A stretch of DNA of 57,417 bases, taken from IMG/VR virus record IMGVR_UViG_3300029581_000016; one strand, given 5' to 3'. The position numbers were made by a program, and so were the translations under genes. The notes beneath the pieces are model-generated. The model did no database searches, had not been told where the DNA came from, and saw only the letters and a list, made by a program, of their open reading frames with translations. This stretch comes from a virus. Of the stretch, positions 21,434 to 47,428 are shown piece after piece (within the stretch, counting starts at the first letter, position 1; each line of letters opens with the position of its first letter).

Positions 21434-21505
21434 CGGGCTATCGTCAAGCGGTAAGGCACAGCACTTTGACTGCTGTATTCGTCGGTTCGAATCCGACTAG
21501 CCCAG
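21434..21505 (+). tRNA. tRNA-Gln (anticodon UUG)
   Basis: Hand-folded cloverleaf. The anticodon arm is cagca-ctTTGac-tgctg and the T arm is gtcgg-ttcgaat-ccgac. The 1:72 pair is a C:A mismatch. No CCA is encoded. Confidence 0.8.
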
Positions 21506-21733
21506 TTTGGTCATGCAAATGACCATCGGACTTTTAAGTCATGTTGTTTCATAAACTCCACCTATTAGCGGAATGCTGTTAAGAGCCGTCACAAGGCTCG
21601 ATAGGTTTTCGGGTTTTGTTGCTGTAGTTACCCGGCGCTCCATAACACGCTAAAAGAATAGCAACAGTGCGGACAACATAAGCCGGGAAGCTTGCGACGC
21701 TGCTGATTCTCGCTGTCGCCCAGTCTGCACTTA

Positions 21734-21807
21734 CGGAATATAGTTCAGTTTGGCAGAACGCTCCACTTGGGATGGAGAGGTCGTAGGTTCAAATCCTGCT
21801 ATTCCGA
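21734..21807 (+). tRNA. tRNA-Pro (anticodon UGG)
   Basis: Acceptor cggaata/tattccg, D stem gttc/gaac, anticodon arm ctcca-ctTGGga-tggag, T loop ttcaaat. Confidence 0.85.
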
Positions 21808-21899
21808 CTGCCTCGAATGAGGCACAAAGCAATACCCCTTTTGATTCAATTTTCGTGTAGCCTTGCCACCGCTCGGCAAGTAAAACAAAGAGCGGACAT

Positions 21900-21971
21900 G
21901 GCGCATTAGTCAAGTGGTTAAGACACCGCCTTTTCACGGCGGAGACGTGAGTTCGATTCTCTCATGCGTCA
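21900..21971 (+). tRNA. tRNA-Glu (anticodon UUC)
   Basis: Acceptor ggcgcat/atgcgtc, anticodon arm ccgcc-ttTTCac-ggcgg, 4-nt variable loop as in bacterial tRNA-Glu. One mismatch in the T stem. Confidence 0.75.
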
Positions 21972-21990
21972 TTTAGGCATAATTGTCTAT

Positions 21991-22063
21991 TGGCATGTAG
22001 CTCAGTTGGTAGAGCAATCGGCTGTTAACCGATGTGTCGTGGGTTCAATCCCCACCTTGCCAG
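21991..22063 (+). tRNA. tRNA-Asn (anticodon GUU)
   Basis: D arm gctc-agttggta-gagc, anticodon arm atcgg-ctGTTaa-ccgat, T arm gtggg-ttcaatc-cccac. One acceptor mismatch. Confidence 0.8.
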
Positions 22064-22187
22064 TTAAACTTACGGTAATCACTCTGACAAAGGATTGCCG
22101 TAAGCGGTATAAAGTCCGCATAAAATTGTACAAGGTAGCGACAAAAGCAATTTTAGGTATGGCGGTTACGCTACGACTGCCGTACTT

Positions 22188-22270
22188 GCCAACATGGTGT
22201 AATGGTATCACAGCGGCTTGCTAAGCCGTCCAACAGAAATGTTGTACAGGTTCAAATCCTGTTGTTGGCG
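22188..22270 (+). tRNA. tRNA-Ser (anticodon GCU), long variable arm
   Basis: Acceptor gccaaca/tgttggc, anticodon loop ttGCTaa, variable arm caaca-gaaa-tgttg, T arm acagg-ttcaaat-cctgt. Confidence 0.85.
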
Positions 22271-32490: not shown

Positions 32491-32967
32491 ATGGCAGTAG
32501 CAGGTATATCTACATTAGGTGTTACGTTTGGTTACGGCACTGAAACGACAGCCGGAACTAAGCCGACAACATTCACACAGCTTACCAGAATTAATTCCAT
32601 TGCCGGAATTAGTATTGACCAGGAGAACATTGACGCATCTGCTCTTGAAGATGCAATTACAAGAAACATAAAAGGCAGAGCTGATACGGGCGGAACGTGG
32701 ACTATAACAGTCAACTTTACCGATGCGACAGAGACAGAATGGGAAACACTCATGTCTGCATATAAGGCATTAACAGGTGGCAAGCGTATGTGGTTTGAGA
32801 CTGTAATTCCAGGTATTACCAAGGGATTTTTTGTTGTTGCTCAACCACCAGAAAATGTTCCACATCCTACAATCGACCAGAACGGTCTTTTAACAGTCGA
32901 GTTCAACCTCATAATCGAGGAATACAAAGGACTTGACACAAAGGTGGAGCTTACACCGGGGGAATAG
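32491..32967 (+). CDS. major tail (tube) protein
   Basis: 158 aa, strong RBS, upstream of the chaperone pair. Followed by several stable hairpins. Confidence 0.7.
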   Translation: MAVAGISTLGVTFGYGTETTAGTKPTTFTQLTRINSIAGISIDQENIDASALEDAITRNIKGRADTGGTWTITVNFTDATETEWETLMSAYKALTGGKRMWFETVIPGITKGFFVVAQPPENVPHPTIDQNGLLTVEFNLIIEEYKGLDTKVELTPGE

Positions 32968-33119: not shown

Positions 33120-33572
33120 ATGATAACATTTGATATTGATAACAAGGAATATAAGTTAGAGTTTGGCTTTGATGCCGCTGAGAATAAGGACATCGTACAG
33201 AAGATGTTCGATTATATGACCGGAGCATACATTTATAAGGAGAACGGCAACACAATCACCGCAATGTCTAACGGTGCCGGTAAGATGGTTGCTGATTATA
33301 GCGAAGTATGTCACATGGCGTTTTATGCCGGCTGCTTACAGCATAATCAGGTCACTAAGGCAGAAGCTAAGGCTCTGACACGAGAATATATTAAACATAA
33401 GAGAAAGACCGACAGCAAGTACGGTTATTATCAGTTATTTGATGACATTAAGAAGTGCATGGAGGACGATGGTTTTTTCGTTTTGAGCGGTCTTCAGGAG
33501 ACAATCGAGCAGATGAACAAGTCGGCGGCGGAGCAACTGGAGATGATGCAGAAAGCAAAGGGGAAAAAGTAA
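33120..33572 (+). CDS. tail assembly chaperone (G-like)
   Basis: Position before the tape measure gene. Ends at a G4A5 slippery run. Confidence 0.7.
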   Translation: MITFDIDNKEYKLEFGFDAAENKDIVQKMFDYMTGAYIYKENGNTITAMSNGAGKMVADYSEVCHMAFYAGCLQHNQVTKAEAKALTREYIKHKRKTDSKYGYYQLFDDIKKCMEDDGFFVLSGLQETIEQMNKSAAEQLEMMQKAKGKK

Positions 33573-33949
33573 ATTTCCACAAACTGATATGGGAAGAATA
33601 CTTCCCGCTTGCGTTTTCTATTGGCATAAGCCTTGAAGAGTTCAAGAAACTCACACCTAAAACTTTAGGCTATTGCCTAGAGGGTGAGAAACTTAGACGC
33701 AAGGAACGAGACAGGGAAGTATGGCTATGGACAAGACAATACGGCTTGCCGGCTATCATCATCGGTACAAGAGGCGGTGCATGGGGCAAGGATAAGGTTG
33801 AATATCCTGAACAGGCTATATATGTTGCACAAGACCCAGTGGAGCAAGAACGGCTTGCAGAACAAAAAAGACAAGAGTTACTTGCACAGCTTATGGGTAT
33901 GCAAGAGAGCTTTGAACGCAATAAGAGAGAAAGAGGCGGTACGGAGTAA
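33120..33949 (+). CDS. tail assembly chaperone, -1 frameshift product (GT-like)
   Basis: The overlapping ORF 33455-33949 is in the -1 frame relative to 33120. The run aaggggaaaaag (33558-33569) sits just before the stop at 33570-33572. Confidence 0.55.
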
Positions 33950-33988: not shown

Positions 33989-35266
33989 ATGGCAGAAGTT
34001 GACAGCTTGGAGATTGGGTTGCAAGCAAACGCCAAAAAAGCAAATGACAGCATTGAAACCCTTATCACTAAGCTTGGCATACTTGCATCGGCATTAGGGA
34101 GTGTCAACAGCTCACAGCTTGGTACATTGGCTATGAATGTCAATAATTTAGGCGCGTCCATGAAGTCGATAAACGATGTCGGCACAGCAAGCTTTACAAG
34201 GCTTGCAAAAAACATCACTAAAATAGCAAGTGTTGACAGTTCGGCACTTAATACGGTTGCAAGCTCACTTAATTCCACGGCGAGCGCATTTAATCAGTTT
34301 ACGGCGGTGTCTGAAAATGCGGCGCAGATTGGTGAAGTTGCCAAGAACATAGCAAAGCTTGGAAACAAGAGTGTACAGACCTCAATTACCAATATGCCGC
34401 AGTTGGCAACATCACTTACAAATTTACTCACAACGCTTGCAAGCGCACCGACAGTAAGCAATAACGTCATTCAGATGACCAACGTATTGGCGAATTTAGC
34501 AAGCCAAGGTTCGAGGGTAGGTTCTGCTTCACGGACAATTCAAAGAAGCCTAAATGGCGTTCACAGAAGCGCACAGACGGCAACTAAAAGCACATGGTCA
34601 CTAGCTAAGTCATTCGGTAAGTTTTACGCTTCATACTTCATGGTCGTTCGTGGCATTAAGGGCTTGTGGACTTCGATTGAAAGTACCACGGATTACATTG
34701 AGGCGTTCAACTACTATGCGGTTGCGTTTGGCAAAATCGGCTCCGAATGGGGCAAAGACTTTGAAAAGTACGGCTATGACAACGCTACGGATTATGCGAA
34801 TAGCTTTTCCGACAGGGTAAGCGCGTTGTTAGGCAAGCTTTCAGGACTTCAAGTTGATGTTGAGGACGGCTTGTTAACGGCAGACAGCACTAAGAACTTA
34901 GGCTTGAATATTCAGAAAGTTACGGAGTTCGCGTCACAGCTTGCCTCAGTGACTAACTCACTTGGACAAACAGGAGAGACAACTACAGCAATAGCAAAGT
35001 CAATGACAATGCTTGCCGGCGATATAAGCTCCCTTTTCAACAAAGGCTATACATCCGTAGCCACCAACATACAAAGTGGCTTAATCGGTCAATCAAGGGC
35101 ATTGTACAAGTATGGTATTGATATTACCAATGCCACATTGCAGACATACGCTTACAACTTAGGTGTTGAAAAATCCATAAGTGAAATGACGCAGATGGAA
35201 AAGCAGCAGTTAAGAGTACTTGCTATACTTGACCAGTCTAAGGTGTCATGGGGTGATTTAGCTAAT
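33989..35266 (+). CDS. tape measure protein, exon 1
   Basis: Alpha-helical, A/S/N/L-rich TMP-like sequence ending ...SWGDLAN. The remaining 16 codons before the stop look like intron read-through. Confidence 0.7.
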
Positions 35267-35605
35267 AAACGGAAGAAAGTTTATAAATTAACTTATCTTC
35301 CAAGTGTTGCATAAGAATAGAAATATCTTATGGCAATCGGGCAATATCGGTGAAAGCTAAAGTTTTCAACTATGCTAATACCGAGATAACTCAATAGATT
35401 GCGAGCAGGCTATTGAGTATCGTAACGAGTAGGAATTGAATAAATATAATATTCCCAAGAGTGTCCGACACTACTGTATATAGGGCAGTATGAGGTGGAA
35501 GTGGCTACCACCAAACCAAACGTAAAACGTGGGTGATAATGTACTCTGAACTTATAGGAAACTATAAGAAGTATAGGATAAAGAGCCTATACGATAACAT
35601 AATTG
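35267..35605 (+). ncRNA. candidate ORF-less group I-like intron
   Basis: In-frame excision restores GDLAN|TINSPSN. The exon ends in U and the intron ends in G. Contains many stable hairpins, including cttatag-GAAA-ctataag. Confidence 0.55.
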
Positions 35606-38600
35606 ACAATAAATTCCCCAAGTAACATGATTAGACAATTCAACACTAATATCAAAGAGACAGGCATGGTATTAGGGCAGATTTTTATACCTGTTCTTCA
35701 AAAGGTTATGCCTGTTGTTAATGGTACAACAATCGCAATTAAACGTATGCTTGTGAGCGTTGCAAGCCTTATGGGTGTCAAAATCGATTTTGACGCTTTC
35801 GGTCAGAATGGCTATAAGGACACCTCTGACGGATTAGAGGATATAGCAAATGGCTATGACAATGTGGCAGATGCGGCTAAAAACGCACAAAAGGGTGTTC
35901 GTGGATTTGACGAACTTGAAAATAGAACCACAGGAACAAGTAAAAGCGGTGCTTCCACTGGCACAGGTGACACAATCGACCTCACAGACGAGATTGTCAA
36001 GGCTACGGAAGAATATGAAAAGGTATGGAACGATGCTTTTGGCAAGATGGAGAATAAGGCTGAGGCATGGGCGGACAAGGTGCAAGGTTTTTTTGAGCGC
36101 ATGTTTAAACCGCTTAAAACATGGGGCAGTAAAGTTGACTGGAAAAAGCTCAAAAATGGCTTTAACGGCATTTTGGAATTTGCTAAGAAGTTTACAGTCG
36201 GTACAGGCACAGGCTTTTTAGATTTCATCGAGGGTTTATCCAATATTGGTGCGCCTGCTATCAATCTTTTAGGTGGTGCCGTAGAAATATTATTTAAAGC
36301 ACTTAATTTAGTTCCGGCTCCAGTGTGGCATACATTGGGTGGCGCTTTAGGTGGCGTCGCAACAGCTCTTCTTGCCTTTAAAGCTTATTCTGCTATTGCA
36401 AGCGGTATAAATACCGGCTTAGGTAAATTTGCAGATGCGATTTTGAAAATTTCAAGTGCAAAGCCGGTTAGCGTTGGCGAGGGTGTTGGTAAACTTGGTA
36501 CAGCGATAGCTTCATTGAGCACAGGCGGCTATGTAGTGCTTGCTGTTGGTGCATTGGCAGCGGTGGCAGGAGCTATTATATCTATTGAGCAAGCCTATAA
36601 GAACAGCATTGACGCATTCACGCAAACGAGTGTATTTGATGGTCAAGGCACACCAATAGGCGATATAGCACAACAGGTAATCGACCTTATCAATGCAACT
36701 GGAACATCAAGCGAAGATATGACTAACTTTGCGACAGAGCTTGACAGAGTAAGCACAAACTTACAGAGTGCAAGCGAAGAAGTCGAAAATCTTAAATTTA
36801 AGTTTGACAACTTGGATTTAAAGAACATATCTGATACGGATATAGAAGATATGCGTACAGCAGTCGGTGACCTTGCTTCTGCATTGCGTGATGATTTGCA
36901 TGTTAGTTCTGATATGGCATGGGACGCTTTGGCTAAGATGTCCGCAGATACAGCGACAAAGTTAGGGATTAGTGTGGGTGAAATGACAACCATATTGTCA
37001 GATTTCAATGCTAGATTTAACGACATTTACAGCGATATGGAATCGCAAGCTAATACGATTTTTGACAAAATGCTTAGCGGCGAAGCTACACAAGCAGATG
37101 TTGACTCACTTAACGGCTTACTTGACGACATGAACTATCTAAGCGGTGAAGCAATTAAGCGACAGGTCGATTTGCAAAACAGCTTTGACAGCATGACCAA
37201 TATTAACTTTCAAAGCTTAGAAGAAACCACCAAAGCTATATCTGATATAACCGAAGCAGGAAAAGCTAAGCTTGATGAAGTTGATGAATATTATCAAAGC
37301 CTTATAGGGCAAGCCGATGAATGGAAAGTATATACTCAACGTGCTTTGGAACGTGGTAAAATCACCTCGGAAGAAGCAGGGCAATACCTTGATTGGATTG
37401 ACAATCTTGCAGAAATATATAATGCTAACTGGACTGAGGAAAAAGACGACATTACCAATCAGATAAACACAACATTTGACTACATACAGTCACAGGTTGA
37501 AAAAGCAGGGGTTGAAGCTTTTCAAGAGGCGCAGACAAAAGACTGGGGATTTGCCGACTTGTTCAGAAATCCAATACAGGATGTTGCCAAGAGTGTTGAT
37601 AAGAATATGGTACAACCGACCATTACTGCAATCAATCAAGGCAAAGAGCAAATAGGCATTGAGATATCGAAAGACAACCATTTGTATCAAAGATGGCTTG
37701 ATAATGCTGCTGTATCCGAGAATGACGTAAGTGGTTGGGCTATGCAAAATGCAAATGCTATCGGTAACGCTATATTAGCAAATGCAGATATCACAACTAA
37801 GGCATTTGCGGACATGGCAGGATATGATGTAAGCGGTTATACGGACGCAATCAAAAAATATCAGCCTAATGTAAAAACGTCTCTGATAAACATGAATAAT
37901 AATGCGATAATGGGTTTGTCGAATGAAGCAAATACTAAAATGCAAAATGTAGGCAAATCGGTTGTTACAGGTTATATTGGCGGTGTAAATAGCAATTCTC
38001 AACAGCTCATTAAACCTGTAGCTGGGCTTGCCAACTTATCGCTTAGCACTTTTATGGAAGCTCAAGGCTCACAAGGCAATAAGCCATCATCGGGTTTTAG
38101 TGGAATTGGTAAAAATTCCATTTTAGGCTATATACAAGGTATTGATAGCCTCGAAAAAGTTTCAACAGATAAAGTGTCCAGCATGGCAGCTAAGTTGAGC
38201 ACTACTTTTGCAGACAAAGCAACTGTCAATATGCCAAGTATTGGCGTTCAAGTAATGACCGGGTTCCTTAATGGCTTGACCTCAATGGAGCAGTCAGTAT
38301 ACAGCAAGGCAGACGAGATAGCCAAGAACGTAGCAAAGACTATCCAATCCGCCCTTGACATTCACTCACCATCAAGGGTTATGTTTGAACTTGGTGCCTA
38401 CACCACAGAGGGCTTTAAAGAGGGCATGGAAAGCCTCTATAAGCCAACAGAGCTATCCATTAAGGATTTTGGCTTTGGCATGGTTGAGGCGGTACACCCA
38501 CAGCAGTTGTACAGTGGTTATGCCGATTACACGCCGAGCGTAAGCACATCGACAAGTACCACTACACAGAACTATTACAATACAAGTTCGAGTGTGGACA

Positions 38601-38758
38601 ATGCCGAGACAAACGCACTACTGAGAGAGCAGAACGAGTTATTGCAACGCATACTTGCCAAGGAATACGGCATAAGCAAAAGCGATATAGGCAAAGCTTC
38701 AAGAGAGTATGCAAGAGACTTTTTTAAGCGGACAGGGCGTGACGCTTACACATTTTAA
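35606..38758 (+). CDS. tape measure protein, exon 2
   Basis: The 1051-aa ORF lacks its own ATG and RBS. It opens TINSPSNMIRQF and has TM-like Gly/Ala helices in the middle, typical of TMPs. Confidence 0.75.
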   Translation, partial: TINSPSNMIRQFNTNIKETGMVLGQIFIPVLQKVMPVVNGTTIAIKRMLVSVASLMGVKIDFDAFGQNGYKDTSDGLEDIANGYDNVADAAKNAQKGVRGFDELENRTTGTSKSGASTGTGDTIDLTDEIVKATEEYEKVWNDAFGKMENKAEAWADKVQGFFERMFKPLKTWGSKVDWKKLKNGFNGILEFAKKFTVGTGTGFLDFIEGLSNIGAPAINLLGGAVEILFKALNLVPAPVWHTLGGALGGVATALLAFKAYSAIASGINTGLGKFADAILKISSAKPVSVGEGVGKLGTAIASLSTGGYVVLAVGALAAVAGAIISIEQAYKNSIDAFTQTSVFDGQGTPIGDIAQQVIDLINATGTSSEDMTNFATELDRVSTNLQSASEEVENLKFKFDNLDLKNISDTDIEDMRTAVGDLASALRDDLHVSSDMAWDALAKMSADTATKLGISVGEMTTILSDFNARFNDIYSDMESQANTIFDKMLSGEATQADVDSLNGLLDDMNYLSGEAIKRQVDLQNSFDSMTNINFQSLEETTKAISDITEAGKAKLDEVDEYYQSLIGQADEWKVYTQRALERGKITSEEAGQYLDWIDNLAEIYNANWTEEKDDITNQINTTFDYIQSQVEKAGVEAFQEAQTKDWGFADLFRNPIQDVAKSVDKNMVQPTITAINQGKEQIGIEISKDNHLYQRWLDNAAVSENDVSGWAMQNANAIGNAILANADITTKAFADMAGYDVSGYTDAIKKYQPNVKTSLINMNNNAIMGLSNEANTKMQNVGKSVVTGYIGGVNSNSQQLIKPVAGLANLSLSTFMEAQGSQGNKPSSGFSGIGKNSILGYIQGIDSLEKVSTDKVSSMAAKLSTTFADKATVNMPSIGVQVMTGFLNGLTSMEQSVYSKADEIAKNVAKTIQSALDIHSPSRVMFELGAYTTEGFKEGMESLYKPTELSIKDFGFGMVEAVHPQQLYSGYADYTPSVSTSTSTTTQNYYNTSSSVDNAETNALLREQNELLQRILAKEYGISKSDIGKASREYARDFFKRTGRDAYTF

Positions 38759-38772
38759 AATTGCGTAACTCA

Positions 38773-38969
38773 TTGAAAATTATGCAATTATAATGTATAA
38801 TGAAGTCACAATTTAATTTGTAACATTATAACGAAAGCATTAAAGAATACCAGTCGGCAGGCTGGCGGCAGAGTTGGTGTTACGAACAGTAAGAGGATGC
38901 AGGCAGAGTGAGCTTGAAGTAATTCCCTCAGCAGATACATTGTAGAAGTGTACCTGTTGAGGGTTTTTT
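38773..38969 (+). promoter_or_regulatory. promoter, ~160-nt leader and intrinsic terminator upstream of rha (attenuator or riboswitch candidate)
   Basis: TTGAAA (38773-38778), 17-nt spacer, TG-extended TATAAT (38796-38801). The 10-bp stem ccctcagcag/ctgttgaggg (38925-38963) is followed by TTTTTT. Confidence 0.6.
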
Positions 38970-39001
38970 ATTACAAATCATCAACAGAAAGGAATGATAT
39001 T

Positions 39002-39658
39002 ATGTTAGTAGAAACAAGAAAAATCGCCAAGAACAAGGAAACAATAGTTGTTAGCAGTCTCGATGTGGCAGAGACATTTGAGAAAGAACACAAGCATGTT
39101 CTTGAAGACATCAGAAAAATTTTTGAGACTTTGAGTACAGCCGAGATTTCGGCTCTATTCTATGAAAGTGAATACACAGCAAGCAACGGCAAGAAAAATC
39201 CAATGTACCTTATGAACCGAGACGGCTTTACACTTTTGGTAATGGGGTATACAGGTGAAAAGGCTATGAAGTTTAAGCTGGCTTACATCAATCAGTTTAA
39301 TGCGATGGAACAGCTTCTTACAGGAAAACTGATTGAGCGCGAAAAGGGCATTGCAGTAAGGCAGTCACTTACTAAGGCTATCCAGCAGTCAAATGAGAAT
39401 GAGCGTATGCATGGACACGCTTATTCTACATATACCGACATTATTTACAAAGTGATATTCGGCAAAACAGCAAAGCAGTTAAGGGAAGAATACGGCATTG
39501 ACAAAAAGGCTAATTTAAGAGACTGTTTTACAGCTGAGGAGCTTGCGAAAGTTCAGTCCATAGAAATGATTGTCAGCGGTCTTGTAAACTGCGGTTGGGG
39601 TTATGACGATATAAAAAGTTTTATTACTAATCCGACGAAAAAATTACTTGTCGCATAA
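39002..39658 (+). CDS. Rha-family phage regulatory protein
   Basis: VVSSLDVAETFEKEHKHVLEDIRKI and ...LMNRDGFTLLVMGYTGEKAMKFK... are typical Rha motifs. Confidence 0.75.
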   Translation: MLVETRKIAKNKETIVVSSLDVAETFEKEHKHVLEDIRKIFETLSTAEISALFYESEYTASNGKKNPMYLMNRDGFTLLVMGYTGEKAMKFKLAYINQFNAMEQLLTGKLIEREKGIAVRQSLTKAIQQSNENERMHGHAYSTYTDIIYKVIFGKTAKQLREEYGIDKKANLRDCFTAEELAKVQSIEMIVSGLVNCGWGYDDIKSFITNPTKKLLVA

Positions 39659-39721
39659 GTTGACATACCTCTCATATCGTGTAATAATGAGGTCACTACA
39701 TTATATGGGAGGTATTGTTAT

Positions 39722-39970
39722 ATGGAAGAAAAAACCACTAAAACCGACAATCAAAGCAAAAACAGTGAGGATATCAAAATAAATGTAATATCCATACTGC
39801 TTGGTTTAGCTTTTTTGTTAGGTGTATTTTTGGCTTTAACTGGTAGATTTATGATTTTATTGTGGATAATAGGCATTTTTTTAAGCTTATTTTGCTTATT
39901 TTTGGGTATAAGACTTTGCTTTGATGTCCACGCAATCAGAAAACACCTTGACAGCAAGGAGAGCAGATAA
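39722..39970 (+). CDS. small membrane protein (two TM helices)
   Basis: ISILLGLAFLLGVFLALTG and LLWIIGIFLSLFCLFLGI. Confidence 0.5.
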   Translation: MEEKTTKTDNQSKNSEDIKINVISILLGLAFLLGVFLALTGRFMILLWIIGIFLSLFCLFLGIRLCFDVHAIRKHLDSKESR

Positions 39971-39971
39971 T

Positions 39972-40922
39972 ATGAGAAGATTAAAAATCGGAGCGATTAT
40001 TTTATCTGCCGCATTGATGGTTTGTGGTTGCAATAGTCCACAGGGCAATGCGGAGACAAATACACCGACAAAAACCACAATTGAGAAAATTCCAGAAACA
40101 ACTACTATTGCAGAAACAGCAACCGAAGTTGAGCTGTCTGATAGCCGTAAAGGACAATATGATGTTACTGGTGGAAATGTGGAATATACTGCTTTGACTA
40201 GTGGCATGAAATCACAATATATTATAAATGCTACGGCTGATAATTCTGACATGGCAACTATAATGTATTTTGTATTTGCTGGAATAATCAATGATGTTGA
40301 TAGTGAATATATTGATTTTACTTTAACAATAAAATGTTCAGATGGCAGTATTGTTTACTCAAAAATAGGCGGTAAAACAGTTGTAGGCAGCACTGATAGA
40401 TATGGTAATATATTGACAACACTTCCTAAATGGTGTGATTTGGGAATTGATGTTGAAATTGAAGAAAATAAAATGTGTTTTTACGATACATTTAACAGTT
40501 TTTCTCAATTTTTATTTGATGCTTTTGGGGTAGAATACAAGCCTATAACACCTGATAATGCAAATGAAGCCGACAATATAGTTTATGAAGATAGTTACAT
40601 AAGGGTGGAATACAACGGTGTTGAAAAAACGAGATATAGTGATGGTAGCTATGATATAATCGTCACAGTAGAGAACTTGACAGACCAAAGTATGACAGTG
40701 CAAGCAAGAGAAATGTCTATAAATGGTTACATGGTTGACCCAATTTATTCTTGTGACATTGCGGCTGGAAAGAAATCTAAGGAGGGAATGAGGATAAGTT
40801 CCGACAGCGCAAAGGATTGTCCAATATCTGATATTGAAAATATTGAGACAAGATTTATTTGTTATGGTTCTGGATTTAATTCGCTAGAAAAGACAGAACC
40901 TATTGTGTTATATCAGAAATAA
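39972..40922 (+). CDS. lipoprotein (possible superinfection-exclusion or surface moron)
   Basis: Signal peptide MRRLKIGAIILSAALMVCGC with a lipobox-like VCGC. Followed by a hairpin plus T-run at 40929-40950. Confidence 0.6.
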   Translation: MRRLKIGAIILSAALMVCGCNSPQGNAETNTPTKTTIEKIPETTTIAETATEVELSDSRKGQYDVTGGNVEYTALTSGMKSQYIINATADNSDMATIMYFVFAGIINDVDSEYIDFTLTIKCSDGSIVYSKIGGKTVVGSTDRYGNILTTLPKWCDLGIDVEIEENKMCFYDTFNSFSQFLFDAFGVEYKPITPDNANEADNIVYEDSYIRVEYNGVEKTRYSDGSYDIIVTVENLTDQSMTVQAREMSINGYMVDPIYSCDIAAGKKSKEGMRISSDSAKDCPISDIENIETRFICYGSGFNSLEKTEPIVLYQK

Positions 40923-40976
40923 GCAGAAGGGAGCTGAGAAGCTCCTTTTTGTTTGCAAAAAAATTAAAAATAACTC

Positions 40977-41030
40977 TTGACAAAGTGTAGCAACAAATGT
41001 ATTATAAAAGCACAACAAAATGTTGCTACA
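40977..41030 (+). promoter_or_regulatory. promoter with flanking 10-bp inverted repeat (operator)
   Basis: TTGACA 40977-40982, 17-nt spacer, TG-extended TATTAT 41000-41005. Inverted repeat tgtagcaaca (40986-40995) / tgttgctaca (41021-41030). Confidence 0.65.
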
Positions 41031-41053
41031 AAGTAAAAAGGAGGATAATAGGT

Positions 41054-41233
41054 GTGTCACCTAAAATAGGGCAAAAAATCAAAGACAATCCCAAAGACTT
41101 TATGTTGAGGACAAGGCTTGATGACGAAACCGTTAAGAAGTTGGATTATTCGGCAGAAAAACTCAATGTAAGCCGTTCAGAGATTGTCAGACGTGGTATC
41201 GAAGATGAATACCAAAAGGCAAAAAAGAAGTAA
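41054..41233 (+). CDS. ribbon-helix-helix (CopG-like) regulator, 59 aa
   Basis: GTG start 9 nt after aaaggagg. Sequence LRTRLDDETVKKLDYSAEKLNVSRSEIVRRGIE. Confidence 0.6.
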   Translation: MSPKIGQKIKDNPKDFMLRTRLDDETVKKLDYSAEKLNVSRSEIVRRGIEDEYQKAKKK

Positions 41234-41357
41234 TCGCAAGATTTGGCGGTCACACGATTACTCCTAAATGTACAATCCGCAAAGGAATTGATAAATCTAT
41301 ACTATCATTCCTTTTGCGGAAAATCAAGGTTTTTTTGGAAAGGAATGGTATGATATA

Positions 41358-41480
41358 ATGAAAGAGCAGATTATCAAGTCAATCATCAGTAATTTAGAAC
41401 ACATCAACTTGCACTTCCTAAAGTGTGTACTGGCATACACAAATGTGTTAGCCGGGAACGAGAAGGGAGGCAATCAGTAA
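41358..41480 (+). CDS. tiny ORF (40 aa)
   Basis: ATG just after a tgatataat -10-like box. Short. Confidence 0.35.
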   Translation: MKEQIIKSIISNLEHINLHFLKCVLAYTNVLAGNEKGGNQ

Positions 41481-41593
41481 TGGAAGAAAACAGAGCAATA
41501 CTTCACAAGCTGATTGACAGCATAACAAGTGGCGGCACACTGGAATATCTTGCTACATTTGTAAGATTATTCTTAGAGAAGTGGGGTGAGTGA
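41480..41593 (+). CDS. tiny protein (37 aa), paralogue of 48401-48559
   Basis: Ends GGTLEYLATFVRLFLEKWGE, compared with AGTLEYLHTFIKLFLEKWG in the other copy. Confidence 0.5.
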   Translation: MEENRAILHKLIDSITSGGTLEYLATFVRLFLEKWGE

Positions 41594-41595
41594 TT

Positions 41596-42285
41596 ATGGC
41601 AAATGATTTAATTACCATTGAGGGAACGGCACTTGCAGTTAGGGAGTACAACGGTCAGAGAGTTGTCACATTCAAGGATATTGATACTGTGCATCAGAGA
41701 CCAAGCGGAACGGCGAGAAATACTTTCAACAGAAACAAAAGCAGATTTGAAGTAGGTAAGCATTATTTTATGCTCCAATTAGAAACAGAAAATTCTAATG
41801 TCCGTTTAACGGACATTAGAAATATCGTTGTACCAAGCAGAGGTATAACAGTATTGACAGAGCGGGGCTATCTGATGTTGGTAAAAGCCTTTACGGATGA
41901 TTTGTCTTGGAAAGTGCAGGACGAATTGATAAGCGGTTACTTCAAGGCTAAGGAGCTTGCGACAGCAGTTTCTACGGCTCTGATTGATGATGGTCTAAAG
42001 TACAACACAAGCGGAACGCCATTGCCAAAAACCAAAAGCTGGTATGACCGCAATGTTGAGAAAATAAACTGGATATGCTCAAGGCTTGGCTGGCAGCAGT
42101 CAACTGTTATCCATAAGTTGCTTGTAAGGATAGGGGCTGAATATGACCTCAACGAAGCAGACAGGATATATCAGCAGGAAACAGGACGCGAAAAGCGTTA
42201 TATGCTTGACCTTGTGGATTATTTCCCGGAGCTTGCAGACATGGCGACGAACTGGATTGACGAAATGCTGAATTGGATAAAATAA
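41596..42285 (+). CDS. ORF6N-domain antirepressor-like protein
   Basis: ALAVREYNGQRVVTFKDIDTVHQRPSGTARNTFNRNKSRFEVGKHYF is the ORF6N/KilA-N-like opening. Confidence 0.7.
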   Translation: MANDLITIEGTALAVREYNGQRVVTFKDIDTVHQRPSGTARNTFNRNKSRFEVGKHYFMLQLETENSNVRLTDIRNIVVPSRGITVLTERGYLMLVKAFTDDLSWKVQDELISGYFKAKELATAVSTALIDDGLKYNTSGTPLPKTKSWYDRNVEKINWICSRLGWQQSTVIHKLLVRIGAEYDLNEADRIYQQETGREKRYMLDLVDYFPELADMATNWIDEMLNWIK

Positions 42286-42436
42286 ACAGATTAGTAGTGC
42301 GGCGGCACCTCAGAAATGGGGTGCTGTTTTTTGTAAGCAATTTTTAATGGGACAAATTGTCCCTTTTAAGCATTGCAAAGGTATGTACGTTAAACGTACT
42401 TTTAGAATGTATTGTTTGATGAAAGGAGCATTAGTG

Positions 42437-42658
42437 ATGGAAAATTCAAGAATTGAAATCAAAACAGACGGAGCTTTTTCACAGATATTCATTGACGGCA
42501 AGAAACTCAATGGTGTAAGAAACTATAAGTTAGAACATGCGGCAGGCAAAGCGCCAACATTAACACTAGACCTCAACGCATTTGATGTATCAGTTGACGG
42601 ACAGATGTTGACTATGCAAAAAGGCGTAGGAGAGATTGAATTGAGTATAAAGGGGTAG
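42437..42658 (+). CDS. hypothetical protein (73 aa)
   Basis: ORF 42347-42658. The ATG at 42437 follows gaaaggag. Confidence 0.5.
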   Translation: MENSRIEIKTDGAFSQIFIDGKKLNGVRNYKLEHAAGKAPTLTLDLNAFDVSVDGQMLTMQKGVGEIELSIKG

Positions 42659-42678
42659 CTGATAACTACCCCACAGTT

Positions 42679-42879
42679 TTAGCCCGAAATGCTTTCAGGA
42701 GCATTTGAAGCAATAGGACATTGAGGTAAATTACAATCATTGCCACAGCTAGTATAATCGCAACTTGCAATACCTTTGGCATACTCAAAGCGTTCAGTTG
42801 TTGAAGCGTTGATGTAATTAACTCTAATCGAATAGTCCTTGTTTTGGGTTGGGCAAAAACCATATACTCTTTTGTACAT
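42679..42879 (-). CDS. small Cys-rich protein (66 aa)
   Basis: The minus-strand ATG at 42879 follows ggaggtg. Sequence ..FCPTQ..CDYTSCGNDCNLPQC. Confidence 0.55.
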   Translation of the reverse strand: MYKRVYGFCPTQNKDYSIRVNYINASTTERFEYAKGIASCDYTSCGNDCNLPQCPIASNAPESISG

Positions 42880-42949
42880 AATACACCTCCTTCCAAGGAA
42901 GATTGTAGCACACAAAAGGCTTAAAATCTACTTTTACAATTTACTATAC

Positions 42950-43019
42950 TAAAATCTGTATACAAAATGTAAACAAAACGTAGCCTAGATAAGTATAGAT
43001 ATAGATAAGAGTAGATAAG
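42950..43019 (+). repeat. second copy of the 40-bp block plus TAGATAAG array
   Basis: 42950-42989 is identical to 20046-20085. tagataag occurs at 42986, 43002 and 43012, and tagata at 42996. Confidence 0.9.
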
Positions 43020-43088
43020 ATTAATAAGAGTATATATATAATAATAAAAAGTAAATAAAGAAATACAGTATATTATTAATAATAATAG

Positions 43089-43116
43089 GGCAGTCCACAA
43101 GGGCTGTCTTTTTTAT
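43089..43116 (+). terminator. intrinsic terminator-like hairpin
   Basis: Stem ggcagtcc/gggctgtc (8 bp with two G:U pairs) followed by tttttt. Confidence 0.55.
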
Positions 43117-43148
43117 TAGATAAATTAGACACATGGAGGGATAAGACT

Positions 43149-43898
43149 ATGAACATTGGTAACAGAGTATTGGCAGTTCAGGGATATGCTGTGACACAGA
43201 ACTACGTACGGCACGTCGAAGCGGTCAAGAATGGCGGTTATGCACAGGGAATTGACCTTGTGCCGCAAAAGGATAACAGATACATTCAGAGCGATATTGT
43301 GGCTCATTCGGACGGTACAGTGCTTTATGCTGGCAACGGTGACGGCTATGGCAATGCCGTGTGGATTCTGCATAATGACAACTATGTGACTGGCTACGGA
43401 CACATGAGAGAGCTTAAGGTCAAGACAGGTGATGTTGTCAAGAAAGGTACACCAATAGGCGTTATCGGCAACACCGGTCATTCAACAGGCATACATCTTC
43501 ACTTTGAGGTTCGTAAGTACAAGAAACCTTATACTGTCAACGCTAGTGATTTCTGGGGAGCCAATTCCTTTATGAACACTTCCAAGTTTGACTGGGTAGA
43601 CCCGACACCGTACATCAACGCTGATTTGCCGGGGCAGACGGTACAGGCGACCACAGATAAGTACTATCGTGTACAGGTTGGAGCTTTTGAAAACAAGTCT
43701 TATGCAATAAACATGGCAAGAGACGTTAGGAGCAAGGGTTACAGTGCGATAATTAAGTACTATGAGGGCAACTACCATGTACAGGTCGGAGCATACAAGG
43801 CTTACTGGCGTGCTACAGCAACAAGGCTCAGGCTGTTAGCGTCCGGCTACAAGGGAGCGTTCATTACTAATAAGACAGGACAGGACATAACATTTTAG
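43149..43898 (+). CDS. peptidase M23 endolysin with a C-terminal SPOR domain
   Basis: GYGNAVWILH...GYGH...GNTGHSTGIHLHFEV is an M23 signature. YYRVQVGAFENKSYA...YHVQVGAY is SPOR-like. Confidence 0.8.
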   Translation: MNIGNRVLAVQGYAVTQNYVRHVEAVKNGGYAQGIDLVPQKDNRYIQSDIVAHSDGTVLYAGNGDGYGNAVWILHNDNYVTGYGHMRELKVKTGDVVKKGTPIGVIGNTGHSTGIHLHFEVRKYKKPYTVNASDFWGANSFMNTSKFDWVDPTPYINADLPGQTVQATTDKYYRVQVGAFENKSYAINMARDVRSKGYSAIIKYYEGNYHVQVGAYKAYWRATATRLRLLASGYKGAFITNKTGQDITF

Positions 43899-43947
43899 CA
43901 TCTATCATTGATAGGTGCTTTTATTATGCCCTAGAAAGGCGGTAAAG

Positions 43948-44364
43948 GTGGCATACGGCGGTTTCTTAATTAAGGTGGGAGAATATATCATCCCGCAAAA
44001 ATTTATCAAGGCTGACACATATAAGGCGTATGTGAACATGCAAGACATAGACGATTACCCGGATGCTAACGGCTATCTGCACCGTAACGCCGTGGAATTG
44101 AAAGCACTAAAGGTTGAGTTTGATGTGCGTGCCATGCTGACAGGCAGTGAATTAGAGGAACTTATGTCGAACATTCGCAACAGTTACACTAATTCAAGGG
44201 GTAGAGAGTGTATAATCACAGCTTTTATTCCTGAGTACAACGATTATGTAACGCAAAAAGGCTACCTTGCCGACTTTCAACCGCAGATATACGGCACATA
44301 CGGCGGAGAGATACATTACAGTTCATTCAGAATGGCATTTATTGGGGGTGTATACGATGGTTGA
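43948..44364 (+). CDS. putative distal tail protein (small)
   Basis: Lies immediately before the tail fibre/Tal gene. GTG start. Functional call from position only. Confidence 0.45.
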   Translation: MAYGGFLIKVGEYIIPQKFIKADTYKAYVNMQDIDDYPDANGYLHRNAVELKALKVEFDVRAMLTGSELEELMSNIRNSYTNSRGRECIITAFIPEYNDYVTQKGYLADFQPQIYGTYGGEIHYSSFRMAFIGGVYDG

Positions 44365-47300
44365 TTACACTTTGCAAGACTTGTTTTATCGTCAGAATGT
44401 GGATAAGCAGTTCATAATCACAACCGATGACGGCTCCGTGACAATCACCAACACAGAACTGCATCAAGAGAGCTTTGAGCTGACAGAGAGTTTGTGTTCC
44501 GAGAGTGAACTGACATTCGGAGCGTGTGAAGCGGCGACGGTTAAGTTCACAATTTCAAATATTTTCACTTCACTGAAAGACAAGTGGATAACTGTCAAGA
44601 TAATCCTTGACGGCAACAGCGATAATTCGTTCATTTTAGGGCGTTATAAGGTGGTGTCTGATAAACCTACGGCAGACCGAATTAAACGCGAGATTGAGGC
44701 TTACAATGCGTTGTACGATGTGATTAACGCCGATGTGGTTGATTGGTACAACAGTATCTTGCCGACAGCGGACACTTACATCACATTCAAGACTTTCAGA
44801 GACAGTTTTTTTGCTCATTTTGGCATCACGCAAAAAGAGATTACTCTTGTCAACGATACTATGACTGTAAGCAGAAGTGTTTACACTGACGAACTTAGCG
44901 GCGGTCAAGTCCTCAATGCTATCTGCGAGATTAACGGTTGCTTGGGGCATATCGGCAGAAGTGGGCAATTCGAGTTTGTATACCTTAGCAACACGGCACC
45001 TATAATAATCAACAAGAGCTACTACACAAGTGCTGATTATCAAGACTACATTGTGTCACAGATTGACAAGTTGCAAATTAGACAGGACGAGAACGATATA
45101 GGAGCTATTGTCGGCACAGGCAGTAACACTTACGTTATTGAGAATAACTTTCTTGTGTACGGCAAGGATGCGGCGACACTAAAGGCTATTGCAACTAATA
45201 TATTCGACAAGATTAAAGGCATAACGTACCGTCCGGCAGAAATAACAAGCCTCGGCAATCCATGTATCGAAGTTGGCGATGCAGTCAACTTATCAAGCAA
45301 GTATGCAGAGATAAACACTTACGTCTTAGAACGCACCTTAAAGGGCATACAAGCCCTTACAGACAGTTATACGGCACAAGGCGAACAATTACGCACCACA
45401 CAGATAAACAGCTCTAATAAGTCAATTACACAACTTAAAGGTAGAGTGAACCGACTAATCCGTGATGTAGACCAGAACAAAGCGGAAATATCGAATGTTG
45501 AAGCCGGATTAAAGAATGAGATAACACAGACCGCATCGGAACTGGATGTAAAGATACAGAGTTTGCAATCGCAGATAGATGGCGAGATAACCGTCATCAA
45601 CGGTCACGGAGTACCAACACTCTATAATTACCCGGCATACAACTGGGTAGCCGGTCCCAAGGTTGGCGATATACTTGTTGAGGGCACAAAGTTCACTTAT
45701 TCGGATGAGGTGTATCGTAAACACCAGAGGACATTGTTTTTCGATGAGGATACGGCGACTACATACCGTTTTATAAAAAAAGATGATATGTGGATATGGG
45801 AGCCGATAGCCGACACTGAATATTCGGTGATTCAGAAGCAGATAGCAGACCTTAATGTAACTGCACAAGGAATTACTCAGAGCGTTGAGCAGCTGTCAAC
45901 CAAGGTGACGAATGAGTATATCACACAGATTGATGCCAAGACACTTGTAGCGACCACAGCAGACGGAATCAAGGAAGATATATCCAAGACGTATACTACT
46001 AGGGATTATGTCAACACACTGAGTGCAGAGTTCAACAGGACAGCAGAGGGACTTACCGCACAGATAAGTGAGGTTAATGAAGCTCTTGATGGTGCCAATG
46101 AGGTCTACACCATACAAGGAACCCCAACCTTACAAAATTATCCGGCGTACAACTGGACATCGGGACCAGTGGTGGGTGATAAGCTTACGCAGGGATTGAG
46201 GTTTACTTATTCAGACGCAAGCTATAAGAAACACAACAGAGCACTTGTCTATGATGAGGTTGCCAGCAAGACGTACAGGTTCATCAAGAACGGTGACACA
46301 TGGGGATTTTCCGATGTTGGCGATACCGAATTTTCGTGGGTCAATAAGAAGTTAGCTGAGTATAAAGCTACGGCAGACGGACTATCTGCTGATTTATCGA
46401 AGTTCGAGACTAAGGTTGACTCGGATTACATAACCAAGATTGATGCTCAGGCGAGCATTAAACTCTCAGCGGATGAACTGAAAAAGGACTTTAGCAAGAC
46501 GATAAGCAATTACTCAACCACTACACAGATGAACTTAGCGATAAGCGAAAGCGCAGAGGGCATTATGACGAATGTAAGCAAGACTTACGCAACAAAGGGG
46601 GTTGTCAGCAGACTGGAAACGTCTATCAAAGCTACGGCAGAAGGGCTAGAAACCAAAGTGTCGAAAGACAAGCTTGTAACCGAAATCAATGCCAGTGCCG
46701 AAGAAGTATTGATTTCATCGAGCAAGCTTGATTTAAAAGGGCTTGTCACAATATCGGCATTACAAGAAAGCGGACAGACTGTAATCAATGCTGATAATAT
46801 AACAACCGGAACAATTAAAGGGCGGCGACTTGAAGCGTGTGCAATGGACGGCGGAGCCATTGCAATAGGGGCAAACAACATTGTAATGAATGAAGCGGGA
46901 CTGTGGGTAATAGGTGAATGTTCAGCAGACAAGCCGGCTTACCAAGTTAATAACAGAGGTGAGATAATGCAATACTGGACAGATGGTATACGCCGATTCT
47001 ACTCTAACGGTTTAGGCGTGAGTGGAACATGGGTAACACATTTTGATGAATACACTGCATCATCGGATTGGTACAAGATATGCATTGCCGCTAATAATAC
47101 ATCAGATGCACGATACAAGAACACAATCAAAAGTCTGGACGATGAAGAACACATGGAAGAACTTTTTAATAGTCTAAAGCCATCAGCATTTTATTATAAC
47201 AAAGGCACAGAATACGTGGAAACCCAAAGACACCTGGGCTTCATCGCACAAGACATTGAGAAAGCGATTACAGAAGCAGGAATCGAGGCAGACATGGCAT

Positions 47301-47428
47301 TATTTGACCATATCAACGAGGATAAACTTGGAGTTAATAAGCAAGAGTTAATAGCCCTGTGTGTATGGCAAATACAAAAACTTAAAGCCCGCGTAACCGA
47401 GCTTGAAAAGAAAGGAGAGGTAGCATGA
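44357..47428 (+). CDS. tail-associated fibre protein with an internal duplication and a C-terminal S74 intramolecular chaperone domain
   Basis: The ATG at 44357 overlaps the upstream stop. Two ~170-aa repeats (PTL.NYPAYNW...). C-terminus ..DARYKNTIKSL...HLGFIAQDIEKA...LKARVTELEKK. Confidence 0.8.
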   Translation: MVDYTLQDLFYRQNVDKQFIITTDDGSVTITNTELHQESFELTESLCSESELTFGACEAATVKFTISNIFTSLKDKWITVKIILDGNSDNSFILGRYKVVSDKPTADRIKREIEAYNALYDVINADVVDWYNSILPTADTYITFKTFRDSFFAHFGITQKEITLVNDTMTVSRSVYTDELSGGQVLNAICEINGCLGHIGRSGQFEFVYLSNTAPIIINKSYYTSADYQDYIVSQIDKLQIRQDENDIGAIVGTGSNTYVIENNFLVYGKDAATLKAIATNIFDKIKGITYRPAEITSLGNPCIEVGDAVNLSSKYAEINTYVLERTLKGIQALTDSYTAQGEQLRTTQINSSNKSITQLKGRVNRLIRDVDQNKAEISNVEAGLKNEITQTASELDVKIQSLQSQIDGEITVINGHGVPTLYNYPAYNWVAGPKVGDILVEGTKFTYSDEVYRKHQRTLFFDEDTATTYRFIKKDDMWIWEPIADTEYSVIQKQIADLNVTAQGITQSVEQLSTKVTNEYITQIDAKTLVATTADGIKEDISKTYTTRDYVNTLSAEFNRTAEGLTAQISEVNEALDGANEVYTIQGTPTLQNYPAYNWTSGPVVGDKLTQGLRFTYSDASYKKHNRALVYDEVASKTYRFIKNGDTWGFSDVGDTEFSWVNKKLAEYKATADGLSADLSKFETKVDSDYITKIDAQASIKLSADELKKDFSKTISNYSTTTQMNLAISESAEGIMTNVSKTYATKGVVSRLETSIKATAEGLETKVSKDKLVTEINASAEEVLISSSKLDLKGLVTISALQESGQTVINADNITTGTIKGRRLEACAMDGGAIAIGANNIVMNEAGLWVIGECSADKPAYQVNNRGEIMQYWTDGIRRFYSNGLGVSGTWVTHFDEYTASSDWYKICIAANNTSDARYKNTIKSLDDEEHMEELFNSLKPSAFYYNKGTEYVETQRHLGFIAQDIEKAITEAGIEADMALFDHINEDKLGVNKQELIALCVWQIQKLKARVTELEKKGEVA

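Follow-up and report, generated by a model that had tools for sequence, protein, structure and literature searches.

Two ORFs that both read as tail tape measure protein (TMP) lie next to each other on one strand of a virus recorded in IMG/VR (IMGVR_UViG_3300029581_000016; the whole stretch of 57,417 nucleotides analysed here is called the window), which raises the question of what separates them. The original prediction was a group I-like intron. Our analysis indicates that 35267-35605 is very probably an ORF-less group I intron of 339 nt, lying between codons 426 and 427 of the TMP gene of a siphovirus-type phage of gut Clostridia and predicted to be removed by splicing. The assignment draws on the Rfam family RF00028, on relatives in which the same site is empty and on covariation. 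The intron, its exons and all of their features given below are on the + strand.

The ORF list contains the two co-directional ORFs as originally described, 33989-35314 (441 aa) and 35603-38758 (1051 aa, listed from TTG), and PHROG searches placed TMP families on both exons. Exon 1 (33989-35266) comprises 426 codons and ends in ...SWGDLAN; exon 2 (35606-38758) starts with TINSPSNMIRQF and comprises 1050 codons plus a stop. On phrog_28918, exon 1 covers profile positions 2-192 and exon 2 continues over positions 193-402. Exon 1 also matched phrog_1535 (tape measure; positions 1-345) and phrog_1204. Among the tape-measure PHROGs, phrog_1535 was matched by both exons, and 1272, 1686, 5493, 305 and 58 were matched by exon 2. 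Those homologues that carry an annotation are TMPs. The predicted spliced product is 1476 aa long, and no Pfam TMP domain was detected in it at E<=0.01. Directly 5' of the gene, two ORFs (33120-33572 and 33455-33949) overlap in different frames, preceded by a weak match to major tail protein at 32491-32967; the ORF pair (33120-33949) probably encodes tail assembly chaperones via programmed frameshifting. On the basis of its TMP-family homology, its large size and its position 3' of the tail-chaperone ORF pair, the interrupted gene is a tail tape measure gene.

Neither frame reads through the interruption. Beyond ...SWGDLAN the upstream frame continues with KRKKVYKLTYLPSVA and then TAA, that is, 15 codons and a stop; unrelated codons and a stop had been predicted at this point, with the codons miscounted as 16. 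The downstream ORF opens L-TINSPSNMIRQF and, as predicted, neither an ATG nor a GGAGG-like ribosome-binding site was found immediately 5' of exon 2, whose start falls midway through a conserved motif in the protein alignment. Base 35266 is the third base of codon 426, and joining it to 35606 keeps the frame, again as predicted. The bases at the two borders are U (35266) and G (35605). Since 35267 and 35606 are both A, sequence alone would allow a shift of the junction by one base; a U 5' of the intron together with a G at its end is found only with the pair 35266/35605. The spliced junction then reads GDLAN|TINSPSN, with GCUAAU joined to ACAAUA, and the predicted nucleotide junction of the ligated exons is GATTTAGCTAAT-ACAATAAATTCC.

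The junction was compared with uninterrupted TMPs, as the original prediction had proposed. In an alignment of six proteins, WGD-LAN|TINSPSNMIR aligned without a gap to WGD-LAD|TINQPANQMR of Dulem virus 39 (uninterrupted sequence WGDLADTINQPANQMR) and to four others, and the G, D, A and a downstream N of the motif were invariant. The motif that had been proposed for this position was therefore roughly right, although its label as TP901-type was not borne out by the Pfam search. A 152-aa peptide spanning the junction matched 55 phage records in GenBank, with 43 of the matches in a single piece and covering 80% or more of the peptide. No split match at the site found in the window occurred among these 55 records with a detectable homologue; the match in one short fragment (MT839765.1) lies downstream of the site only.

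To place the site among closer relatives, we turned to IMG/VR, since a megablast of window positions 1-25000 returned no close phage relative from GenBank. A scan with the junction peptide yielded 572 relatives, and in the best 80 of the 572, which were kept, all 152 residues were matched contiguously, some at 98% identity in protein. A second scan, with a 23-mer from P9.1 and the 3' tail of the intron, added at least 119 further contigs, and the exon flanks were projected onto all loci. The site was found in three states: empty, with a gap of 0 nt, in 77 contigs; occupied by an ORF-less intron, with a gap of 337-341 nt, in 55; and occupied by a long allele, with a gap of 1264-1276 nt, in 14. 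The empty site reads …GCTAAT|ACAATA…, and in a close relative (L012) GGTGATTTAGCTAAT|ACAATAAAC. In the long allele, the P5 loop of the same intron is enlarged by about 935 bases that code for a 311-aa protein, in which a GIY-YIG (E=2.6e-10) and a NUMOD1 domain (E=1.3e-13) were recognized. The last ~12 codons of this endonuclease ORF double as the P5'-P4'-P6 strand of the ribozyme, a stretch still present in the window copy. In the long allele at L114 1445-2721 and at 13 other IMG/VR loci, the loop that holds the ORF is closed by a 6-bp GUUUUC/GAAAAC stem. An extended -10-like sequence, TGGTATAAT, is present just 5' of the endonuclease ATG, and the endonuclease may have a promoter of its own. 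Contiguity across the site was seen at 24 genome or MAG loci, mostly of Lachnospiraceae and other gut Clostridia, which suggests gut Clostridia as the host range.

The empty-site alleles also fix the 3' border. As set by them, G35605 directly abuts exon 2 (ACAAT), and a G stands at this position in 42 of 42 alleles of the intron, as expected of a terminal G (omega-G); the U before the intron is likewise invariant, so that the predicted border bases were confirmed in the whole set. The end of the Rfam match, 35568, was considered as the 3' splice site and rejected, because the empty-site alleles put the boundary at 35605.

A search of 35100-35760 with Intron_gpI (RF00028), the check named in the original prediction, gave a match at 35289-35568 on the + strand that spans the full model (positions 1-253) with 48.0 bits and E=4.2e-11. 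The curated gathering score of the family is 50 bits, 2 bits above the window copy. Sibling alleles scored 50.7 (L110, above the cut-off), 46.8 and 44.7 bits, and the intron family thus straddles the cut-off, with E-values that are far from chance. In Rfam scans of the whole window, run in gathering and in E-value mode, the intron was not listed, and it was seen only in the 661-nt search; it lies below the gathering cut-off, and in E-value mode the filters dropped it. Since these scans missed a genuine intron, Rfam silence elsewhere in the window is weak evidence against other introns there. An Rfam E-value scan of 38700-44400 found no further intron 3' of the TMP gene, and nhmmer with a profile of the intron family found no second copy anywhere in the window. 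The 339 nt are without an ORF, as predicted, their longest stop-free stretch being 58 codons on the minus strand. A homing endonuclease is absent from the window copy, and tblastn found no GIY-YIG homologue elsewhere in the window. That absence, which the original prediction had singled out, is real; as a distinguishing trait it becomes ordinary beside the GIY-YIG-bearing siblings at the same site. An intein, ribosomal bypass and frameshifting were also considered for the interruption and rejected on account of the in-frame stops, the 339-nt insert and the match to a ribozyme model.

To define the fold, 42 distinct alleles were aligned, with helices placed from the Rfam alignment and by inspection, and 88 pairs were scored. 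These were 99.4% paired across the 42 alleles. Compensatory double changes were found at 10 pairs, compared to a mean of 4.0 in shuffles, none of 500 of which reached 10, and to 0-1 in slid controls. They are located in the P1 extension, P2, P5, P5a, P6, P7.1, P8 (three pairs) and the third hairpin of the P8 domain. With a mean column identity of 97% among the alleles, single inherited events account for some of these counts. No compensatory change was seen in P3, P7 or P9: P7 does not vary at all, and the variation in P3 and P9 is confined to a G·U pair or, in P9, to one unpaired cell. P1, P7 and P9.1 keep every pair. Covariation is uninformative for P1, P7, P9 and P9.1, which are invariant or nearly so in the family. 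RNAalifold and minimum free energy (MFE) folding gave the same helices except for the pseudoknot, and each recovered independently all five stems listed in the original prediction. Compared with shuffled sequence the fold is stronger (z = -4.5), and none of 100 shuffles equalled it.

At the 5' splice site, exon UAAU and the first intron base A (35263-35267) form the 5' strand of P1 and pair with the internal guide sequence UGUUG (35305-35309), which was placed from the helix assignment and the covariation analysis. This guide had been suggested as a possibility, and its pairing with UAAU|A holds in 42 of 42 alleles, as does the UG pair at the splice-site U, U35266·G35306. At exon position -4, a U to C change in 2 alleles leaves the pair with G35309 in place. 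P1 is short, with 5 bp that are 100% paired; 4 of them involve exon bases, and two of these 4 are G·U. P10 has 2 bp only: read from the sequence, U35305 and G35304 can pair with A35606 and C35607 of exon 2. The guide is also complementary to UAACA (35595-35599), an invariant mimic of the 5' exon end (UAAUA) that lies 6 nt before the terminal G, and both RNAalifold and MFE folding prefer this pairing. Another hairpin in place of P1, AUAAAC/GUUUAU (35265-70/35279-84), was set aside, since it would put A opposite the splice-site U and has decayed in most siblings. The P1 extension hairpin (35271-35301; GGAAGA at 35271-76 with UCUUCC at 35296-301) is 100% paired around a variable loop; its stem shows one G-C to A-U compensatory change and is kept in siblings with 3-nt and 12-nt deletions in the loop. 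P2 (35310-35332) pairs CAUAAGA with UCUUAUG under a GAAA tetraloop, with an A-U to G-C change at the tip in 7 alleles, and holds the in-frame TAA (35312-35314) that ends the exon-1 frame in 42 of 42 alleles. The first helix of the Rfam model, CUUAU/AUAAG, was dropped in favour of the P1 extension and P2, as L175 lacks the upstream CUUAU whereas GGAAG/CUUCC and CAUAAGA/UCUUAUG are retained with compensatory changes.

The core helices P3 to P9, including the P3/P7 pseudoknot, were all located. P3 pairs UCGGGCA (35337-35343) with UGUCCGA (35462-35468) over 7 bp that are 100% paired and recovered by RNAalifold and MFE folding. The P4-P5-P5a domain (35347-35384) shows compensatory changes in P5 (C-G to U-A) and in P5a (U-A to C-G in 8 alleles); alignment with the long alleles puts their GIY-YIG ORF in the P5a loop, at 35365-35367. 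P6/P6a (35385-35421), placed from the Rfam alignment, pairs CUCAAUAG with CUAUUGAG and has an outer GA/UC, with a C-G to U-A change in 3 alleles. The 5' strand of P7, GAGUA (35427-35431), pairs with UACUC (35542-35546) as a pseudoknot with P3, in agreement with the Rfam consensus P7 positions GACUA/UAGUC; the 3' strand is preceded by J8/7 (AUAAUG), the two together (35536-35546) being aligned to the Rfam consensus ...GAUAUAGUC. Between P7 and the 3' strand of P3 lies a P7.1-type hairpin (35432-35455), with a U-A to G-C change in L147 and L138. The P8 domain (35469-35535) consists of hairpins at 35472-35490, 35494-35512 and 35520-35530, with three compensated pairs in the first and one in the third, and is possibly closed by an invariant helix of CAC (35469-71) with GUG (35533-35). 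P9 (CUUAUAG-GAAA-CUAUAAG, 35551-68) and P9.1 (GUAUAGG/CCUAUAC, 35571-92) complete the structure (35551-35592). Extra helices P7.1/P7.2 between P7 and the 3' strand of P3 are a trait of subgroup IA in the scheme of Michel and Westhof. In the window family this interval contains a single hairpin, which covariation supports; no second one was detected there, and two extra hairpins follow after P8. The architecture appears subgroup-IA-like, with a non-standard, three-hairpin P8 region.

Intron and exons differ in their relationships. The window intron is on average 94.9% identical to the other alleles, compared to ~80% and ~70% for their 300-nt exon flanks. The nearest relatives of the window by exon sequence are mostly intron-less (L010-L025), and only L147 and L138 among them share the intron. 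Such a pattern points to lateral spread or repeated loss, which a homing intron would be expected to show, and a homing history is accordingly how we would read the distribution. Over the first 30 nt of exon 2, identity is 77-79% with intron-bearing loci vs 65% with empty loci, a weak signal that no more than suggests exon co-conversion. Since siblings at the same site carry the GIY-YIG/NUMOD1 ORF, the window copy is read as an allele of a mobile intron that lacks the endonuclease and is non-autonomous. It would be passed on vertically or by recombination, perhaps aided in trans by a sibling with the endonuclease in a co-infected cell. The 3' end of the intron reaches further. Exact copies of the 23-mer GGATAAAGAGCCTATACGATAAC, which covers P9.1 and the 3' tail, were found in at least 119 IMG/VR contigs (L090-L208), also in introns of unrelated phages. 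At 75.7-92.4% identity, it further stands at the end of inserts or gaps in various genes in records of Staphylococcus, Clostridium, Streptococcus, Alicyclobacillus and crAss-like phages, and pieces of the intron recur in 19 Bacillus phage records. This segment appears to be a 3' module widely shared across a large family of phage introns.

Could the insertion be an artefact of assembly or a chimera that placed unrelated DNA in the TMP gene? The window is probably a metagenomic assembly, and the exact 24-mer spanning P3-P4 has no match in IMG/VR, the siblings differing there by one base. The same insertion, to the nucleotide, is nevertheless present in 55 short and 14 long independent contigs from several samples, and L147 and L138 match the window at 96-97% across the intron and its flanks, so that an artefact, which the original prediction had named as a way to be wrong, is effectively refuted. 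A genuine insertion might still be a decayed remnant that no longer splices, leaving the TMP broken in a defective phage or expressed in pieces. The window copy lacks an endonuclease ORF and scores slightly under Rfam's gathering cut-off, P1 and P10 are weak, and the metagenomic origin of the sequence gives no assurance of a viable phage. Set against this, the core helices are intact, with the same 99.4% pairing, the compensatory changes kept over 42 alleles in 55 contigs point to ongoing selection on the fold, there is no variation in the U at -1, the terminal G or the guide, and the exon frames are intact over 426 and 1050 codons. We therefore consider a dead remnant highly unlikely.

Slightly less credible still is a gene in pieces, in which the TMP halves are translated apart and assemble without splicing, with the 339 nt as a spacer derived from a mobile element. 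Annotators list similar loci as two proteins (6ec, phiCP13O, TPWB06), and endonuclease insertion is known to split essential genes (a ribonucleotide reductase case is among the references of PMC10448857). Exon 2, however, starts inside a conserved motif with neither an ATG nor a ribosome-binding site, and a spacer has no need of a full-length match to the group I model or of conserved splice-site nucleotides. The RNA family match, the precise insertion, the colinear exons, the structural covariation and the three-state polymorphism are direct observations, and the group I intron that they describe is probably functional, its splicing being predicted from these features. The ORF-less allele could further be more than a passenger, either through conditional splicing that times or limits the tail-length ruler or through a functional 441-aa N-terminal TMP fragment made from unspliced RNA. 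The data require neither, and we rate such a role as very unlikely; the idea is entertained because this is the commonest intron allele (55 of the 69 sampled intron-bearing contigs) and because of its unusual three-hairpin P8 domain and the alternative pairing of the guide with UAACA.

In the proposed pathway, the whole TMP gene would be transcribed into a single pre-mRNA, in which the guide UGUUG (35305-09) would pair with exon UAAU and form the U35266·G35306 wobble. An external guanosine bound in P7 would then attack after U35266, and the freed 3'-OH of exon 1 would attack after the terminal G35605, ligating ...GCUAAU to ACAAUA... in one TMP frame of 1476 codons (…WGDLAN-TINSPSN…). Ribosomes on unspliced RNA would halt at the conserved P2 TAA, 15 codons into the intron and 5' of the catalytic core. 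Work on T4 td points to a need for ribosomes to stay out of the ribozyme core, and the conserved stop in P2 would fit this.

In mobile introns of the T4 td/I-TevI type, as in the window family, a GIY-YIG ORF protrudes as a loop from a peripheral helix of the ribozyme, which in T4 is of subgroup IA; an in-frame stop follows soon after the 5' splice site, and intron-plus and intron-minus alleles coexist among related phages. The T4 introns lie in nucleotide-metabolism genes, whereas the window intron lies in a structural gene, and the window allele differs from the td type in that its ORF was lost or never present. The original prediction knew of no intron described in a tail-length determinant, and on this point it was mistaken: TMP introns have been described before, and the window intron is a fresh example of a known phenomenon. 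Group I introns of subgroups IA1/IA2 were reported in 2008 at three TMP sites of prophages of the B. cereus group, with one allele, TMP-IVS3b, lacking a complete homing endonuclease gene and shared between different phages (Tourasse & Kolsto, PMC2504315). The Bacillus introns TMP-IVS1/2/3, of subgroup IA, resemble the subgroup-IA-like window intron as group I introns inside a prophage or phage TMP gene, some without a complete endonuclease, common to otherwise different phages and targeting conserved stretches of the gene (PMC2504315). In contrast, the window intron belongs to a phage family of gut Clostridia, and its sibling endonuclease is of the GIY-YIG type and sits in the P5 loop. The TMP gene has since been called a 'frequently interrupted gene' (Barth et al. 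2023, PMC10448857), and splicing of an interrupted TMP gene was demonstrated in the Vibrio phage ICP1 in 2023 (PMC10448857). As in the window family, the endonuclease content of the ICP1 TMP intron varies between isolates in a constant context (PMC10448857); the ICP1 intron has HNH-3 endonuclease genes and a Gram-negative host, whereas the window copy is ORF-less and its splicing predicted.

Related inserts are present in database records in which no intron is annotated. Two CDSs stand for the TMP in the records of Staphylococcus phage 6ec, 'Arcanobacterium' phage TPWB06 and Clostridium phage phiCP13O, and in TPWB06 they are separated by a gap of ~210 nt. The inserts of these phages end with the same P9-P9.1 module, the likeness being one of sequence identity (75.7-89.6% over the last 73-106 nt of the intron). 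They lie at other protein positions than the window intron (…QLG|NNMATQE…, …NGIKG|…EGGTALRN…), and the 6ec insert has an HNH ORF.

Further features of the window were also recorded. A cluster of five tRNA genes (55.6-67.9 bits) lies on the + strand at 21434-22270, and one of the five is similar to a tRNA-Asn found in phages of Ruminococcus gnavus. Four ORFs with non-coding gaps between them (38948-43898) follow the TMP stop and precede the next large tail gene (44267-47428): anti-repressor/Bro-like ORFs at 38948-39658 and 41590-42285, a 333-aa ORF with no assignment at 39921-40922 and an M23-type peptidase ORF at 43149-43898. They form an unusual moron-like insertion within the tail module, and the Rfam scan of 38700-44400 gave no hit of any kind there. 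The phage phiCP13O likewise has an antirepressor directly after its TMP.

The finding leaves knowledge of introns and of tail-length determination unchanged. Its practical value is in correcting a split-gene annotation and in exposing a blind spot of threshold-based Rfam scanning. Gene callers cut one essential gene into 'proteins' of 441 aa and 1051 aa, and the GenBank records of 6ec, phiCP13O and TPWB06 contain the same error. Standard Rfam scans, which apply the gathering threshold, pass over the element, so that gut viromes probably hold more such introns than are counted. Together with its relatives, the locus provides a well-sampled site in a structural gene in three states, empty, endonuclease-bearing and ORF-less, that is usable for the study of homing and intron decay in gut phages.
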